From a virus (taxonomy: Duplodnaviria; Caudoviricetes): a stretch of 64,000 bases of DNA. The translations under genes were made by a program, and so were the position numbers. This document shows positions 9,493 to 62,119 of the stretch, piece after piece. Position 1 is the stretch's first letter. Each line of letters begins with the position of its first letter. Where the stretch lies: the IMG/VR virus record IMGVR_UViG_3300037067_012889, positions 128,001 through 192,000 of that record; one strand, written 5' to 3'. The notes below the pieces were generated by a model. That model saw only the letters and a program-made list of their open reading frames with translations. It did no database searches and was not told the DNA's origin.

Positions 9493-9888
9493 TCAGAACT
9501 TGGCACGTATAATATCGACGTCGTGGCATCCGCCCTTTAGGACGATTTTTGCACCGCTTCCGCCATCGTCTGTGATTTCACATATTGAGTTGATGAACTC
9601 TAGAACCTCGTGCTCGAAATTGAGGTCTGTGTTCATCTTACCATTTCGTAATGGTACTACAAAATGTGGATGACCAGGATGTAATGTCTGCGTCAGCGAA
9701 GCCACAATATCGCGGACTTCATTTGGCGGAAGATTTCCGGTCTCAACATACATTACAGTTCTGATAGGAACACTCATATCATCGACCTCCCTAGATCGTG
9801 GTAATGCTTGAGTCGTCACAATCGGCTCACTCTTCGGTTTTTCGTCCTTAATTGCCGGTGGAATACTGCAACTTCTACATTTTCCCAT
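9493..9888 (-). CDS. hypothetical protein
   Basis: 131 aa, GGAG RBS. Confidence 0.65.
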   Translation of the reverse strand: MGKCRSCSIPPAIKDEKPKSEPIVTTQALPRSREVDDMSVPIRTVMYVETGNLPPNEVRDIVASLTQTLHPGHPHFVVPLRNGKMNTDLNFEHEVLEFINSICEITDDGGSGAKIVLKGGCHDVDIIRAKF

Positions 9889-10056: not shown

Positions 10057-10365
10057 ATGGAGTTGCTAATAGCCGATCTAGTTGGACATGAACGACCAGA
10101 GGATCAGAAATGCGACTATGAACATATAGCATTTCTGACAAAGGCGTACTATGAAAATCCAGATGAAGGTCAGCGTGCTCGATTACTCATCAATGGCGAA
10201 GAAGTCAAGAGAGGCACCGTCGAGCAGATGAAAGAAGCCTATAGATTTCAAACCAGCATCAATCAGAAAGCCAATATTTCTGTGCAAGAATGGCAGAAGA
10301 AGCCATTGTCTGATAAACCGGCTGGCTTTGTGACAATAATGTCCAGAGCCGTACGGGTTTGTTAG
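10057..10365 (+). CDS. hypothetical protein
   Basis: 102 aa; frame is open upstream to 9979. Confidence 0.6.
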   Translation: MELLIADLVGHERPEDQKCDYEHIAFLTKAYYENPDEGQRARLLINGEEVKRGTVEQMKEAYRFQTSINQKANISVQEWQKKPLSDKPAGFVTIMSRAVRVC

Positions 10366-33325: not shown

Positions 33326-34414
33326 ATGATTTCACCGCACACGTACGCTAATGGTATGATGGAAGTTAACGGCCTAAAAGCCCAAGTCAATACACCCGAA
33401 GCCTTAAAAGGTGATTCGCTACATGCGTTGCCGCCACATTGTGTAGTTCCTGCATGTGTCGTCGACGAATACCCAGCATGCCCAGAAAATTGGATGCATG
33501 GCTCTAGTAAAGCGTCCAGTTATTTTATACCAGTACAGACCGGCAGGGGGCTCTGGTTTGACTTCACTATGAATGTCGGGCATACCCATGACATAGCTAT
33601 CGTTGTTAGCGTACAAGGCGTCAATCCGATAACTGGCAAAAAAGTAACTGAATTGAATCTAGAACAATATCGCGAAAAATGTCCTGTCCACAACACAACT
33701 TTTCGACAGGACAGATTTTGTGAAGAATGTGGATATAAGTGGCCTGCTCAGAATTATATCGCAACGACAACAAACCAACTACTATGGATTGATGGTTTTC
33801 GTAATGAAAACGGCGAAGTAAGACAATATATCATTACAGAAGACATTACACGTGGCATAGCTGCACAAGTCATAGGAAATGACCGTGTCTGGGCTATTGG
33901 TTTTGCTTTTTATCTTAGCAAAGAACCACGTCATAGAGAAGCATCAAGTCTACTATTATGCCCGAAAACGAATTACTTCCAACAATCAAGTCCTAGCATA
34001 TATGGCGTAGACCAACAATTAAGTCCTAACATGTATGGTGTGTCTAATGATGCCGGAGATATGTGCGATTGTGCATCAGATACGTCAAAAGGAATGACGA
34101 ACATATCATTAAATTGTTGCAACGCATCTCCGACTGCATCTACAAAAGGCTTATATAAAAGTAGATTAATACGTTCTTGTTCGGTTACACCACCCATAAC
34201 GCCGCAGAAGACGCTAGAAATCGGTGCTGGTGCCAGAATTAACCAGGAGATTGGTATCGACCCAAATGCAATTGATTTTTGGCAGACGGAACCAGCAGGT
34301 TTGATTTATGCAAACTACTGTAGCAAAGAAACCTTTGCAGAGATCGTCGCGGCCGGGCGTAGACAAGATAAGAAAGATGGCGCACTAAATACTCTGAAAG
34401 TTGGCAATGTGTGA
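33326..34414 (+). CDS. conserved hypothetical protein with Zn-ribbon insertion
   Basis: P..W...YFIPV...LWFDF...GVNPITG...QNY...WIDGF...G.VRQ pattern; CPVH...CEEC insertion; start moved to ATG 33326 (GGAG). Confidence 0.7.
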   Translation: MISPHTYANGMMEVNGLKAQVNTPEALKGDSLHALPPHCVVPACVVDEYPACPENWMHGSSKASSYFIPVQTGRGLWFDFTMNVGHTHDIAIVVSVQGVNPITGKKVTELNLEQYREKCPVHNTTFRQDRFCEECGYKWPAQNYIATTTNQLLWIDGFRNENGEVRQYIITEDITRGIAAQVIGNDRVWAIGFAFYLSKEPRHREASSLLLCPKTNYFQQSSPSIYGVDQQLSPNMYGVSNDAGDMCDCASDTSKGMTNISLNCCNASPTASTKGLYKSRLIRSCSVTPPITPQKTLEIGAGARINQEIGIDPNAIDFWQTEPAGLIYANYCSKETFAEIVAAGRRQDKKDGALNTLKVGNV

Positions 34415-34431
34415 TTCCTTTATAGGAATCA
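34412..34431. terminator. hairpin between convergent genes
   Basis: TGATTCCT-TTAT-AGGAATCA. Confidence 0.5.
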
Positions 34432-34444
34432 AGGGACCACAGGA

Positions 34445-36802
34445 CTAGCCATAAATCAGTTTATTTGCACCGGGCACCACTTCTTCGACTACCATCTTAC
34501 ATAAGCATAAGTGAAATTCACTTATCATTTTGTATTCGATTGAATCGAATCCGCAGCTTTCGCCGATTTCTTGTTTGACGGCGTTTGCTGCCGACGTGAA
34601 CTTCAACATTGCTGCAGTCCGCAGTTTTGATATGTGGGCGTTAGAAACAGAGCAGATATGCTCACCCTTCTCATCCACTTTATCGAAAATGTCGGTCCAC
34701 ACATGTATCGGAGTCTTTCTACCAATTTCGACACCACCAACGGCTGGATAACCTGCTTCGGCCCATTGAGATTTTCCACCGCTCGCGGTGATTTCCGGAT
34801 CTTGTGGTGTATCGCGCTCAGGATAGTTATCAATGCCATATATTCTGAGCAACATCCGATATTGCTGAACTGATACTGTCTCTGGTGATGGCTTGAGTTT
34901 AATATCCTGCTTTGCTACCTTCAACAGATCGTTGATTTCGGTCCGAATCTCACTAAATCCGCCATGTATCTCTATCGTCCCGAAGATCGATTTAAGTAAT
35001 TCAGAAATTTCTTCTTTCCATTCGCCCAAATCTCCTACATCTTGGGCAATGTTTTTAAGATCACTGATTGCCTTTGTGGTGTCGAGATTTTCAGAGCGTG
35101 CCTCTAGATAACTATCGACAGCTTCTCGAATAGCCGTAAAAATCTCAGCGGCTTCTTCTGCTTGTTCTTTTCGTTTAACAGAATCATCCTGATATGGCGA
35201 AACTTTAGCAATCGTCATCGCCAACTTTTCACGAGTCTCCTCACTATGCAAATAGTCTACATTAGTGCCAGTACTAGCGAAATCTGTACGCTCAGTCTGC
35301 TCGTCATCATCGCCGCCGACATCCATAGAAGCAGCATGAATAGCTTGTAAGTTAACCTGTTCTCGCGTTCTGATCATTTCTTGCTGATGTTCGCTCATAC
35401 TGATGAATTCCTCTAGTTGCTCTCTATCATTCGATCTTAATGCTTCTTCTAATCTTGCCGTTATTGCTGCAAGTCCAATAGATCCCGGAGATTTATGTAA
35501 ATCTTTCTGATGTGGTTCATATCTAGAAACATACGCTGTTTTCCGCACAGTACCAGTTTTGCCATACTTGCTCTTACTTATGGGATACTTGAAATCGTGC
35601 CACAATTTTTTCGCAGCATCGACAAGTTGATCAGATGACTGCCCATTAGATAACAACTTATCAGCATGACGGGCCAATTCACGTTGCTTGTCTAGTAATT
35701 TGGCGGCTTTATTATATGCCACTAATGAACCATGCTCCCTCGGTTTTGTACCAACGGCACCGCTACGAGTGCTGCCGAGGGATTTATACTTACTTTCATT
35801 TTGTTCTATCTTGTCAAACACCTCATCCATGCTTTCAAGTTCTCGTTGAATCTCCTTAGCGCTTCCAGATGTTATAGCACGAAGAAGTTTGCTTCTTACC
35901 TCCAACAATTCATCAGCGAGAATACCATATGGATGTTTCGGGCCAGATTCTAATTCACCTCTACCACCGCACCTGACACAGCGCACTAATGCCCTGCGGC
36001 CTTCTTTATCTAGCATATTCTTACTTTGAATCTCTCCGGTGCCCTCGCAATCTGGGCAACGATTGAAGTTCGCAAAAATTTTGCGAACTTCCATAATATC
36101 ACCCTCTATTCGTTCTCCATTCCTGATATTGCGAATAGCCGATTTTGCGATAGATGTCAAATTTCTTCGTATTCCCCTAGCTTTGCGATATTCATCATGA
36201 TATCCGGGCGGAACACCCGAACGCATAGCTTGTTCTATAGCTATACCAATATAAGAGTCAAACCTTACACCTTCTTCGGCTCTATCACCGGGCAATACCT
36301 GTATAGCCGCTTCGGCACCACGCATCATTGCATCTCTTATATCGTTCTCATCATATGTGCCACCATGTGTTGCCGCTGCTGCCCCAGAAACCGAACCCTT
36401 TTTGGCGATTCTTCGTAGGACAGAATTGTCGTATTCGTCATATAGTTTACCTATTAGTGTCTCGATCACTTCACTAACAGACCATGGCCTAATTCCACCA
36501 TATTTATGGCTGTATGGATTTTCATCGAATTTTATATTGTGTGAGTCTCTTTCCGATAGACCGCGCTTACCGGTATCCTTAGGGCCGATAGGTTGTTTAG
36601 AACCTGCTGTGAATACTCTTGGCGGTATATAATCACGGCCAGCGACATAATCATCCCAGCCGACATTTGGACCTTTACAATTATGTAAGGCCATCTTCCT
36701 GGCCGCAGGATCGTTCATATCGACTACTATTTCCGGTGGATTTTCTGCCTCACTAATAATTCCGACATTGAACGCCGAATCTAGTCGCTGTATAATATTC
36801 AT
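34445..36802 (-). CDS. highly divergent sigma70-like protein with DnaJ-type Zn-finger insertion
   Basis: Region 2-like VLRRIAKK...DAMMRG...EEGVRFDSYIGIAIEQAMR; region 3.2-like ASMDVGGDDD; region 4-like VSVQQYRMLLRIYGI...VSNAHISKLRTAAMLKF; CPDCEGTG/CVRCGGRG. Confidence 0.55.
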   Translation of the reverse strand: MNIIQRLDSAFNVGIISEAENPPEIVVDMNDPAARKMALHNCKGPNVGWDDYVAGRDYIPPRVFTAGSKQPIGPKDTGKRGLSERDSHNIKFDENPYSHKYGGIRPWSVSEVIETLIGKLYDEYDNSVLRRIAKKGSVSGAAAATHGGTYDENDIRDAMMRGAEAAIQVLPGDRAEEGVRFDSYIGIAIEQAMRSGVPPGYHDEYRKARGIRRNLTSIAKSAIRNIRNGERIEGDIMEVRKIFANFNRCPDCEGTGEIQSKNMLDKEGRRALVRCVRCGGRGELESGPKHPYGILADELLEVRSKLLRAITSGSAKEIQRELESMDEVFDKIEQNESKYKSLGSTRSGAVGTKPREHGSLVAYNKAAKLLDKQRELARHADKLLSNGQSSDQLVDAAKKLWHDFKYPISKSKYGKTGTVRKTAYVSRYEPHQKDLHKSPGSIGLAAITARLEEALRSNDREQLEEFISMSEHQQEMIRTREQVNLQAIHAASMDVGGDDDEQTERTDFASTGTNVDYLHSEETREKLAMTIAKVSPYQDDSVKRKEQAEEAAEIFTAIREAVDSYLEARSENLDTTKAISDLKNIAQDVGDLGEWKEEISELLKSIFGTIEIHGGFSEIRTEINDLLKVAKQDIKLKPSPETVSVQQYRMLLRIYGIDNYPERDTPQDPEITASGGKSQWAEAGYPAVGGVEIGRKTPIHVWTDIFDKVDEKGEHICSVSNAHISKLRTAAMLKFTSAANAVKQEIGESCGFDSIEYKMISEFHLCLCKMVVEEVVPGANKLIYG

Positions 36803-36833
36803 ATGTCACTCCACTGATTAATAATTACCTAAA

Positions 36834-36841
36834 TATCTTTG
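36834..36841 (-). promoter_or_regulatory. CAAAGATA promoter-like motif
   Basis: Same 8-mer upstream of genes at 20559, 21262, 36802 and 46370. Confidence 0.45.
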
Positions 36842-36908
36842 GCTGCCGGTCGCGCGTGGTGGAATTGCTTGCAGTATCTTATATACAACAAACCAAAGAG
36901 ATATTAAG

Positions 36909-37847
36909 ATGCTCGTAGAAAGCCATCGACATTTAGCAGGTTCCATAACCCCAGAAACTATATGGGAAATAATTAGCGGACCTCCATACCCTCTGTACTG
37001 TTTTGGCACGAAATTGTCCGTCGTATCATCTCTAGAAGCCGTGCGCCAACAAGTATGTCTTATGCGTGACGACGCCGACTTCAATTATTTCTGTTCAAGA
37101 TTCAATATCTTAAATAAAATAGAATGGAATGATTGGGCATTATATAAAGTAGCAAGACAAGTATTATCTGATATAAAAACCGAAGGAATAGATTGGTGCA
37201 CTCTTACAGTATCATTGAACAAATTCACCGGATCAGACGATCTAGTTACCACTGGCTATCGAGTGTTTAGTATATTAGATGTAATCACAAAAGAGTTAGA
37301 TATTAATGTCAATTTTTTATTATCTATTAGTTATGATTGGCCTATAGAATTGCAACTTAAGATGCTTGGCCTTATCGAGCATCTAGGGATTTTCGTATCT
37401 GGTGTAGATTTTGTTGGTGATGAATCACTTGCTAAATGGCATGAATATACAGAGCCACTTAGCAAATGGAAAGCAGAAGACAAAACCATACGTGTCCATG
37501 TAGCAGAAAGGCCAGGAACTAGCAATAATCTCGGCCTGGCTATGACACATATAGACATTACCAGGATTGCCCATGGAATCTATGCCACAAAAGAGCAACA
37601 GATAGAAACCATACGTCGTGGAATTGTATTCGACATGGCAATACATAGTAATATTTATACGCATGCGATTGAACTGACAAAACACCCGATCAAACAAATG
37701 CAAGAGGCTGGATGTCTGATAACTGTCGGCACTGATGACCCCGTACAGTTCAACTGTACATTACAAAATGAATATGCACTGGCCGAAGCTATGGGTGTAA
37801 ATAAGGAATTACTGCGACAAACAGCAATCACATCAAGGATAATATGA
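36909..37847 (+). CDS. add: adenosine/AMP deaminase family amidohydrolase
   Basis: ESHRHLAGSI (HxH), GVDFVGDE, HVAE, RIAHG, TVGTDDP. Confidence 0.88.
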   Translation: MLVESHRHLAGSITPETIWEIISGPPYPLYCFGTKLSVVSSLEAVRQQVCLMRDDADFNYFCSRFNILNKIEWNDWALYKVARQVLSDIKTEGIDWCTLTVSLNKFTGSDDLVTTGYRVFSILDVITKELDINVNFLLSISYDWPIELQLKMLGLIEHLGIFVSGVDFVGDESLAKWHEYTEPLSKWKAEDKTIRVHVAERPGTSNNLGLAMTHIDITRIAHGIYATKEQQIETIRRGIVFDMAIHSNIYTHAIELTKHPIKQMQEAGCLITVGTDDPVQFNCTLQNEYALAEAMGVNKELLRQTAITSRII

Positions 37848-37849
37848 AG

Positions 37850-38263
37850 CTAGTGTTTGTGCTTCGCTTTTTCTATTAGGTCTAACACATTATTATATAG
37901 CTTTAGCGATTTCATCTCTTTGGTAGTAAAGAATCCAAGTGATGCAAATTCATGATTAGGTTTCAGCCTACTACAGTCTGTAGAGTCTGTTTTACACGGT
38001 ACAAACGCCACAAATCCTTTACGTTTATCCTTAATTGGACCTGAAATAGAACGGCATTTACAACCAGTTTCTTCTTGTGTCTCCCTGACAGCTGCTTTCT
38101 CTGGTGTTTCTCCGGATTTAATCCCACCCCCAGGAAAACACCAACGGCCCGAGCGATCGTCGTCCGACTTAGATAATCCCAATAGCCATTTATCTCGACA
38201 TTTAACAATACCGACAGCGGCAGTAAATTTATCTAACCCTTCAACCAGTAATCTTAATTGCAT
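37850..38263 (-). CDS. Nudix hydrolase with MQLRLLVE N-terminal tag
   Basis: Nudix box WCFPGGGIKSGETPEKAAVRETQEETG. Confidence 0.92.
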   Translation of the reverse strand: MQLRLLVEGLDKFTAAVGIVKCRDKWLLGLSKSDDDRSGRWCFPGGGIKSGETPEKAAVRETQEETGCKCRSISGPIKDKRKGFVAFVPCKTDSTDCSRLKPNHEFASLGFFTTKEMKSLKLYNNVLDLIEKAKHKH

Positions 38264-38763
38264 TACGAGTTTCCCTTTTTAACTTCTTTAATTTCTTTGT
38301 CTACTAATTCCTTTAAATAGTCATTAAGCGATGCCCAGCATTTTCGCTCATCTGGCTCTATATCATCCAATCCACTATCGTTATTTGGAGAAGTCTGATT
38401 ACCTTTACTACCTAAAAGGTGGAGATTACCTTGTTCTTTATTTGGGATAAAACAGAAATATGGGTTGTGATATTGACTAAGTTCAAAAGCATATCCATCC
38501 CATAACTGGCATCGGAAATAAATCGATGGCCGTTCCCAATCGCCACCACCTTTTCTCATTTGACAATGGAATGTACACTTCGATGATTCCCATTGTTTTT
38601 GCGGTATAGTTATGACTCGCTCAACTATGGTGTCGTCATTTTCAAGACTAAAACTAACACCAAACTCTTTCTTGGCCTCCTTGAATTTTTCATCCCACAT
38701 TGGTTTGGATATAGCATCATATCCAAAAAACTCTTTATCTTCTGTCAACAATCTTAATTTCAT
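38263..38763 (-). CDS. hypothetical protein with MKLRLLTE N-terminal tag
   Basis: 166 aa, TAATG-coupled to the Nudix gene. Confidence 0.7.
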   Translation of the reverse strand: MKLRLLTEDKEFFGYDAISKPMWDEKFKEAKKEFGVSFSLENDDTIVERVITIPQKQWESSKCTFHCQMRKGGGDWERPSIYFRCQLWDGYAFELSQYHNPYFCFIPNKEQGNLHLLGSKGNQTSPNNDSGLDDIEPDERKCWASLNDYLKELVDKEIKEVKKGNS

Positions 38764-61423: not shown

Positions 61424-62119
61424 TCATCGGTTTATGGCATTTCGTACAAAATACATCAGATGAGCATACTGCTGTGGTATCTTCTTGCGTTCTCTTGCCT
61501 TCCATTCTAATGCAGATGCTTTTTTATGTGCATCATTATAATTGTGACCATTATCTAATATTTCAGCTCGTTCGAAAAATTCATGCAAAGCTACGAATGG
61601 TAGTTCGCTCTTATGTATCGCAATATCTAACCAGATCTCATCAGTAGGAACCCAATCGTATGCGCCATGATTTCCGCCCAAACAGAAATCTACCTTATAT
61701 TGATCCCTGACTGCTTCGGCATTTATTAAATAGAAACGTACACCAGATATTATTCCAAGATCGAGCTGATAAATTTCTTGATCTGGCTTACCATATGGGC
61801 CGTGCTTCGACGGTAGTGCCTTTGATCGTTCTGCTTTTTCTGCCCGTATACCAGTTTTATAATCATCGTGAAGCATCCCAACAACCAAACCATAAATAAC
61901 ATATGGTAGTTCGTCACGAGATATGCTATCTTCTATCCATCCTTCATTTTCTGGTATTTGGCTTATAAGCTGGTGACTAGCCGATTCGTTAAATTCTTCA
62001 AAATCTGGGCTTATTGAGCGTATTTGTTCGCCGTTCACAAGATAGATAGAAATATTACCAAAACGTTTAAGCGGTTGCTTTGTAATTCTAGTGTCTTCTG
62101 ATAACAATCTTAATTTCAT
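61424..62119 (-). CDS. internally duplicated zincin-like protein with MKLRLLSE tag
   Basis: Two copies of YL[VI]N.E.[IV]R...E.W...I...ELP[YF]V; second copy has HEFFE...YNDAH. Confidence 0.6.
   Translation of the reverse strand: MKLRLLSEDTRITKQPLKRFGNISIYLVNGEQIRSISPDFEEFNESASHQLISQIPENEGWIEDSISRDELPYVIYGLVVGMLHDDYKTGIRAEKAERSKALPSKHGPYGKPDQEIYQLDLGIISGVRFYLINAEAVRDQYKVDFCLGGNHGAYDWVPTDEIWLDIAIHKSELPFVALHEFFERAEILDNGHNYNDAHKKASALEWKARERKKIPQQYAHLMYFVRNAINR

Follow-up and report, generated by a model that had tools for sequence, protein, structure and literature searches.

A 64,000-nucleotide stretch of viral DNA (the window), corresponding to bases 128001-192000 of the 363,885-bp uncultured virus record IMGVR_UViG_3300037067_012889, which CheckV rates as complete, encodes a 785-residue protein, P0001, that our sequence comparisons and structural models place firmly as a very divergent and insertion-rich lineage of the sigma70 family in jumbo phages lacking an RNA polymerase (RNAP) of their own. 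Most jumbo phages have no RNAP, and the timing of gene expression in such phages is largely obscure. Our preferred reading of P0001, held with middling confidence, is that of an intracellular late-phase sigma acting on the host RNAP.

The gene lies at window positions 34445..36802 on the minus strand as a single frame of 785 codons without stops, alone on its strand, with a GGAG ribosome-binding site read directly from the sequence at 36809..36812 (minus strand) and a conserved start, the N-terminus being kept in all relatives of the family alignment (A1). A word-indexed search returned 16 related proteins, of which 13 are full-length and 41-88% identical, and an exhaustive profile search brought the sigma-like family to 57 representative clusters. 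Its members come exclusively from metagenomic contigs of uncultured large phages, several of 70-390 kb, and tblastn with P0001 and two relatives (P0046 and P0049) gave no meaningful match among 50,697 deposited phage genomes. A first-pass annotation of this DNA had described a large, insertion-laden open reading frame (ORF) with sigma-like motifs in a stated order and had called the product a sigma70-like protein with large helical insertions; the frame is real, the motifs occur in that order, and the family assignment is borne out by the region-2 profile and structure and by Pfam matches in short relatives.

Sigma-like domains and insertions of P0001

Profile comparison against the PDB, a predicted structure and Pfam matches in distant family members together establish a sigma region-2 domain at residues ~127-205 of P0001 (residues 127-205 at 36188..36424, minus strand), with the motifs LRRIAKK for region 2.1, D..MRGA for region 2.2 and G.RF.SY.G..IEQAM for regions 2.3/2.4. 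A profile built from P0001 residues 94-240 and 44 relatives (A5) was searched against all PDB sequences, and sigma70-family chains occupied all 60 of the rows shown, out of 67 matched; the best was RpoD at E=5e-5, and the matches listed beyond it included SigA, SigB, FliA and RpoS. Residues ~154-200 of P0001 align in this search with residues 400-446 of Escherichia coli sigma70, i.e., regions 2.2-2.4, and the -10 recognition residues F427, Y430 and Q437 of sigma70 are retained as F181, Y184 and Q191. Significance was reached solely by the domain-restricted profile, the whole-protein profile A1 giving FliA as its top PDB match at E=0.73. The set F427, Y430, W433, W434 and Q437 (E. coli numbering) defines sigma groups 1-3, not the whole family.

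The AlphaFold2 (AF2) model of P0001 has a mean predicted local distance difference test score (pLDDT) of 69, and superpositions were made with VIA-align. Residues 108-200 of the model superimpose on 1sig_A 375-446 with Z 8.0 and a root-mean-square deviation of 2.5 Å over 72 residues at 19% identity, and the model matches SigB in the open complex (8x6g_H) with Z 8.2. Because these superpositions were mixed with many generic helical-bundle rows, we weigh them only jointly with the sequence evidence; taken together, the RpoD match of A5 and the 1sig_A superposition put the region 2.1-2.4-like stretch proposed in the first pass beyond chance. When the whole model was searched with Foldseek in the PDB and a viral library, nothing came up at E<=0.001; the weak rows included lambda Q and, at E=0.1, a 685-residue 'sigma-70 factor' from Vibrio phage Kuja. 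A complex prediction for E. coli beta' 255-315 and the alignment of the region-2 domain scored 0.27 against a mark of 0.32 and is evidence neither way.

Shorter members of the family carry the connection further. The profile A1 reaches relatives of 405-650 residues at library-wide E values of 1e-17 to 1e-24, and Pfam Sigma70_r2 matches were found in 10 of 29 distant members (best E=5.9e-8; P0049 scores 32.8 bits against a cut-off of 24). The family hidden Markov model (HMM) places the Pfam sigma segments of the short relatives on the same P0001 columns as the motifs picked out in the first pass.

Region 4 is linked to P0001 through the same intermediates. Seven of the 29 distant members match Pfam Sigma70_r4 (best E=9.7e-10), and the cut-off of 24.1 is reached by P0046 (36.5 bits), P0045 (28.3) and P0052 (24.1), whose matching segments align by the family HMM to residues 643-736 of P0001, a link that is transitive. 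The C-terminus of the short relatives consists of a canonical 4.1 helix, a family-specific insertion and a standard helix-turn-helix (HTH), which in P0045 reads ...TANEISNELGIGVARVNQLKRRAMEKL. In P0001, a region 4.1-like helix, VQQYRMLLRIYGI (residues 643-657; 34832..34876, minus strand), aligns with the start of the P0046 Sigma70_r4 match (residues 373-443); it is followed by a near-invariant insertion, NYPE(R/K)GT..DPE...G..S.WA..GYP (residues 658-692; 34727..34831, minus strand), defined by the columns of a 44-sequence C-terminal alignment (A4). A region 4.2-like recognition helix, SVSNAHISKLRTAAMLKF (residues 719-736; 34595..34648, minus strand), occupies the columns of the canonical HTH of P0045, P0046 and P0052, and about 21 residues, modelled as a beta-hairpin, are inserted at the HTH turn ahead of it. 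The best direct sequence row was that of SigB region 4.2, second among the PDB matches of the A4 profile at E=0.33. On these alignments we accept the C-terminal domain (residues ~643-736) as a homologue of sigma region 4 into which the family has introduced two insertions of its own. One interrupts the HTH turn; the other, the NYPE..DPE..WA..GYP segment between region 4.1 and the HTH, is a hallmark of the family.

The remainder of the protein is peculiar to the family. The first ~118 residues hold the densest invariant set in P0001 (G44, P45, G48, W49, Y52, G55, D57, Y58, P60, P61, G73, P74, R105, P106, W107 and E111), these residues falling in a region rich in W, Y, P and G with many invariant A1 columns (GP..GW.DY..G.DY.PP ... 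RPW..E; residues 28-118, 36449..36721, minus strand); this region had no Pfam, PHROG or NCBIfam match, is modelled with low to moderate pLDDT, and could serve as a docking surface for a host protein. Between the sigma2- and sigma4-like parts lie ~430 residues of helical bundles plus, in the lineage of P0001, a DnaJ-type zinc finger; the structural matches of these ~430 residues were generic helical bundles only, with no homology to region 3. The region 3.2-like label that the first pass had put on an acidic stretch is unsupported. The helical-bundle insertions proper take up ~345 residues (34883..35920, minus strand; AF2 helices 295-634) and contain two conserved disordered loops, AVGTKPREHG at residues ~345-358 and, at residues ~487-519, an acidic loop in which an ER is invariant; shorter relatives of 450-650 residues do without much of this stretch. 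The zinc finger, a CxxCxGxG...CxxCxGxG pair of DnaJ/Q type already noted in the first pass (residues 247-284; 35951..36064, minus strand), was the sole feature returned by the Pfam, PHROG and NCBIfam scans of P0001, and did so below threshold (DnaJ_CXXCXGXG, PF00684, E=7e-4; phrog_127, E=1.3e-4). Pfam matches to it occur in just 7 of 15 close relatives, and it is a lineage-variable insertion.

Promoter classes, other sigma candidates and gene neighbourhood

A simple gene call gave 206 upstream regions, in which three motif classes were found. The one that bears on P0001 is class C, CAAANWTA, of which upstream regions hold 28 sense copies where 3.6 would be expected (only 1.7-fold enriched if the leading C is dropped). 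It stands ahead of virion structural genes, among them the tail sheath (phrog_23, E=2e-85), a tail spike/fibre gene and the baseplate hub, and these downstream genes suggest a late timing for the class. A member of it, CAAAGATA (36834..36841, minus strand), lies 31 nucleotides before the ATG of the sigma-like gene, and CCAAA[GTA]ATA was found 27-38 nucleotides upstream of the start in all seven close-clade loci, despite protein identities of 42-88%. No sigma70-type consensus promoter was found upstream of the gene on its own strand. The first-pass annotation had named CAAAGATA a late-type motif, which stands insofar as it belongs to the enriched class; the exact 8-mer is not enriched genome-wide (21 observed, 18 expected). 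It had also called the arrangement unexpected for an ordinary sigma, a fair remark about the late-type promoter, though sigma genes of RNAP-less jumbo phages had already been described (PMC7824862, PMC13282480).

A second conserved intergenic element, TTGTATATAAGATACTGC (36871..36888, minus strand), is located 30 nucleotides further upstream than CAAAGATA; within it, TAAGATACTGC is invariant in four aligned loci with 42-88% protein identity, and it may possibly be another promoter or an operator. The 14-mer TTGTATATAAGATA occurs twice in the 364-kb genome, the second time at genome 239259-239272 on the minus strand, before the gene at 237871-239259. That copy lies 13 nucleotides ahead of a 462-residue gene with a subtilisin-like D-T-G motif.

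Class A, GTATTTNA, is phage-specific and has 36 copies: GTATTT(A/T/G)A, oriented with the gene, is present in 36 upstream regions with ~5-fold enrichment as a 6-mer and 18-fold as GTATTTAA, which suggests another promoter class peculiar to the phage. The enrichment is confined to the sense orientation in upstream regions, the exact GTATTTNA being found 85 times genome-wide against 83.5 expected. The motif is often preceded by ..AT or a TATAAT-like hexamer, with examples at window positions 9493-9888, 32369, 42557, 62435 and 62689. Nothing ties P0001 to the GTATTTNA promoters. Class B (23 copies) is sigma70-like with an extended -10 and reads GTTAAT-N15-TGCTATAA(C/T), also written GTTAA(T/C)-N15-TGCTATAA(C/T) or GTTAAT-N15-TGCTATAAC; it is probably the early class served by the host sigma. 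Its copies are very uniform and resemble sigma70 and T4-early promoters, with examples at genome 127862, shortly ahead of the first position of the window, and at window position 10057.

RNAP domains (Rpb1_2, Rpb2_6 and single-subunit types) were detected neither in the 364-kb genome nor in a 99%-complete relative of 388 kb, and in a phage without its own RNAP, a sigma acting on the host polymerase makes sense. RNAP-less jumbo phages that encode sigma factors are known from published surveys, and the genome fits the 'group 2' jumbo phages described there, with RNAP absent and a sigma factor encoded (PMC7824862; PMC13282480). No other ORF of the 364-kb genome reached the Sigma70_r2 cut-off. Its one weak match to that model (E=0.076) comes from a 344-residue core gene at genome 243933-244967 (L001:817-1851, minus strand), which founds a highly conserved family, A6, of more than 320 clusters at >=50% identity with no Pfam match or annotation. 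The region-2-like motifs of A6, DLLQTAW..IERTLYKF ... KVFNMWSQIARTVIL..IKKE, are interrupted by a CxxC...CPxC zinc ribbon; hhalign of A6 against the region-2 alignment gave P=0.0018 at a probability of 15%, and the A6 profile had no sigma match in the PDB. A gp55-type minimal second sigma with a zinc-ribbon insertion is a plausible reading of A6 from its motifs. Sigma-like ORFs near genome 284-2331 were unsupported by PHROG or PDB searches and were rejected. A huge phage that has a sigma70 of its own and carries CRISPR spacers against the sigma70 gene of its host has been described by Al-Shayeb et al. (2020), as has the use of a dead Cas14 for repression (PMC7162821).

The closest partner of the sigma-like gene is an adenosine-deaminase-family gene on the plus strand (36909..37847; PF00962, E=5.9e-22), which adjoins it in all ten loci (including L010, L011, L013 and L015-L020). 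In the close clade, the two genes are divergent; in three distant lineages, they are co-directional with gaps of 4-12 nucleotides, a GNAT gene standing between them in one case, and there they form an apparent operon. In lineage L017, CAAAATTA lies 37 nucleotides before the deaminase start of the pair. The wider module contains Nudix, HTH_3 regulator, Dam-type methylase, thymidylate kinase and dUTPase genes, and Mom in relatives; since Dam-type methylase and Mom genes are nearby in relatives, the pairing may couple the seizure of transcription to the chemistry of adenine or of nucleotides. Downstream of the sigma-like gene are convergent lectin/propeller fibre genes. An inverted repeat, GATTCCT-ATAA-AGGAATC (window 34413-34430), sits in the gap where the sigma-like gene and a 389-residue fibre-module gene converge; it has no T-run and drew no call from a terminator scan.

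Readings of the protein's role

As an intracellular sigma, P0001 would take the place of the host sigma on core RNAP, its region 2 contacting the beta' clamp helices and its region 4 the beta flap, and the host RNAP so bound would be redirected to phage promoters. The lack of a sigma70-type promoter, together with a CAAANWTA element common to tail and baseplate genes, indicates that P0001 is made along with the virion proteins, presumably from that element. In the producing cell, it would then hold the host RNAP on phage promoters as a late-phase sigma, with positive feedback if CAAANWTA is its own target. The missing region-2 tryptophan pair and the interrupted region-4 HTH suggest that a single -10-like element is read, not a -35/-10 pair.

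Several results weigh against this picture. No sigma model of Pfam, PHROGs or NCBIfam matched P0001 itself, and the positions of sigma70 W433 and W434 are Ile and Ala in the A5 alignment. A dedicated AF2 model of the C-terminal domain (pLDDT 82), compared with the PDB by Foldseek and VIA-align, gave no sigma4 fold, the search lists being dominated by a long helical hairpin. Structure prediction, which the first-pass annotation had put forward as a check for the sigma r2/r4 fold, has recovered region 2 (1sig_A, Z 8.0) and not region 4, and the first-pass assignment of regions 4.1 and 4.2 holds as far as the columns shared with relatives that pass Sigma70_r4, with no solved sigma4 matching the C-terminal model. 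A sigma expressed from a late-class promoter alone also requires another source of its first molecules, and a single-element late promoter would more naturally be read by a gp55-like A6. Lastly, if P0001 is a sigma that stays in the cell, the N-terminal [ILV]xE site found family-wide is left without a role.

That site is at the centre of a second explanation, along the lines of the first-pass annotation, which we take seriously because of the structural-gene motif upstream of the gene, the absence of an early-type promoter and the presence of a family-wide protease-type site together with a matching protease, and which we nevertheless judge unlikely. According to it, P0001 would be made late, targeted to the prohead by its leader and cut after Glu18 by the T4-type protease. 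Once packaged, it would enter the next cell along with the injected DNA and, from the first moments of the new infection, either turn host RNAP towards one class of phage promoter or displace the host sigma. The leader (residues 1-18, MNIIQRLDSAF..IISE; 36749..36802, minus strand) ends in [ILV]-x-E and is followed by a variable acidic linker. The same order recurs across the family as a short amphipathic segment, M..[LI]..[RK][LI][DN]..[LI], then [ILVM]-x-E, then the variable acidic linker, and 52 of 58 full-length members have an [ILVM]-x-E between residues 11 and 27, even where identity is as low as ~20%. Among the 18 [ILVM]xE sites of P0001, IISE (residues 15-18) is the only one both conserved (14 of 15 relatives) and outside predicted helices, which agrees with its original designation as a protease-type site. 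The companion claim of a terminal cleavage site at MISE (residues 759-762) is unsupported: the site is conserved, but like two other conserved sites it lies inside confidently predicted helices of the C-terminal domain.

A T4 gp21-type prohead protease gene, Peptidase_S77 (PF03420), is present at genome 24959-25402 (E=1.4e-21, 74.6 bits) and is likewise encoded by the 388-kb relative. In T4, the capsid-targeting sequence of Alt is cut by gp21 after L/I-x-E; leader, IxE site and protease would fit capsid targeting and processing of this type. Six otherwise unrelated proteins of the phage open with M[KQR]L.LL.E, e.g., MQLRLLVE on a Nudix enzyme, and are encoded at window 37850-38263, 38263-38763 and 61424-62119 (minus strand) and at genome 27653, 284125 and 284583; two of them, the Nudix gene and the next gene, lie directly past the deaminase neighbour of the sigma-like gene. 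Capsid-targeting sequences of T4 are short and end in LxE (PMC3012670, PMC9026906), and M[KQR]L.LL.E resembles them as a portable leader of eight residues ending in L-x-E. If A6 reads the late promoters, a second late-made sigma would moreover have no obvious job in the producing cell. There is precedent in kind in the late-made, packaged RNAPs of N4 and phiKZ (PMC7598289) and in the packaged 76-kDa T4 Alt.

Against packaging, a position-weight scan of the family leader over the N-termini of the genome gave six proteins above the 99th percentile where ~5 were expected, i.e., no enrichment, and the generic [IL]xE[AN] was merely 2-fold enriched there. In three distant lineages, the gene is co-transcribed with metabolic-looking deaminase, GNAT or Nudix genes, the family has no cultured relative, and the case is built from circumstantial sequence features. 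In line with the first-pass annotation, no precedent for a packaged sigma factor was found in our literature search.

In a third explanation, P0001 would be derived from a sigma without still being an initiation factor, and would act as a decoy or inhibitor that shuts off the host by covering the sigma-binding surfaces of its core RNAP; or else the sigma-like ends would be no more than docking modules on a scaffold for the deaminase and Nudix enzymes encoded alongside. The melting tryptophans are lost, the region-4 HTH is broken by ~21 residues with no sigma4 fold recovered, and parts peculiar to the family (the W/Y/P-rich region near the N-terminus, the helical bundles and the invariant NYPE..DPE..WA..GYP insertion) make up over half of P0001, all of which would sit well with such a role, as would the strict linkage with the adenosine-deaminase gene at 10 of 10 loci. 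The retention of the -10 recognition residues equivalent to sigma70 F427, Y430 and Q437, a canonical region 4.2 HTH above Pfam cut-offs in shorter relatives, and the need of the phage for a factor serving its two non-sigma70 promoter classes make us regard this explanation as very doubtful. A lambda Q-type antiterminator was rejected, as only residues 247-283 match (PF03589, 14 bits against a cut-off of 26.7; phrog_127, E=1.3e-4) and the finger is absent in many relatives; the Foldseek rows to Q-lambda were weak (7ubl_A, E=0.84, probability 0.35).

Comparison with known systems

At least one entire lineage of phage sigmas escapes standard annotation, given the 57 clusters, none with a cultured member, and the lack of a library sigma match on P0001. 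The genome described here offers a concrete system in which three clear promoter-motif classes stand beside one full-length sigma-like protein and one gp55-like candidate, and in which the division of labour between them is testable.

With the bacterial sigma70 proteins of groups 1-3 (E. coli RpoD, 1SIG/4JK1; FliA; SigB, 8X6G), P0001 shares regions 2.1-2.4, homologous in sequence and fold, keeping G-x-[RK]-F-[ST]-[ST]-[YFW] and I-x-Q-[AG], and a region 4 whose homology is traced via intermediates. It differs from them in its size of 785 residues, in a conserved N-terminal region of ~100 residues that replaces regions 1.1/1.2, in the ~430 residues of helical bundles and zinc finger in place of region 3, in having no W433/W434 equivalents, in the two insertions within region 4, and in going undetected by the Pfam and NCBIfam sigma models. 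The CxxCxGxG pair resembles the zinc ribbon of lambda Q and DnaJ, a likeness of just ~38 residues.

The nearest published setting is that of the 'group 2' RNAP-less jumbo phages, which have minimal gp55-like and RpoD-like sigmas (Iyer et al. 2021; PMC7824862). The genome type is the same, with no RNAP, a T4-type head protease and one or more sigmas presumed to recruit the host core. Whereas the complete versions described there are 'close to cellular RpoD', the family of P0001 is too divergent for standard models, and P0001 differs further in its late-class promoter motif and in having no homologue in the 50,697 deposited phage genomes.

T4 gp55, acting with gp33 and the gp45 clamp, brings the host RNAP to one late element of 8 bp, TATAAATA, to which CAAANWTA would be the counterpart in the phage of P0001. 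Both proteins are without the tryptophan dyad and rely on a -10-like element, in the case of P0001 presumably so. However, gp55 has ~185 residues, consists of region 2 only and is made before the late genes, whereas P0001 is four times larger and carries a region-4 homologue. With 785 residues and that homologue, P0001 falls outside the definition of a gp55-type minimal sigma, for which the genome has a separate candidate in A6.

The likeness to the N4 virion RNAP, the phiKZ virion RNAP and T4 Alt lies in the late-type promoter, the N-terminal leader ending in I-x-E and the T4-type prohead protease. Those proteins are polymerases or an ADP-ribosyltransferase whose packaging has been demonstrated experimentally, whereas P0001 is a sigma whose packaging is a conjecture from its sequence. 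If the conjecture is true, a virion-borne P0001 would give a virus a new means of taking over transcription in its host from time zero, with the host RNAP reprogrammed before any phage gene is expressed; such a 'bring your own sigma' strategy would parallel the packaging of polymerases by N4 and phiKZ.

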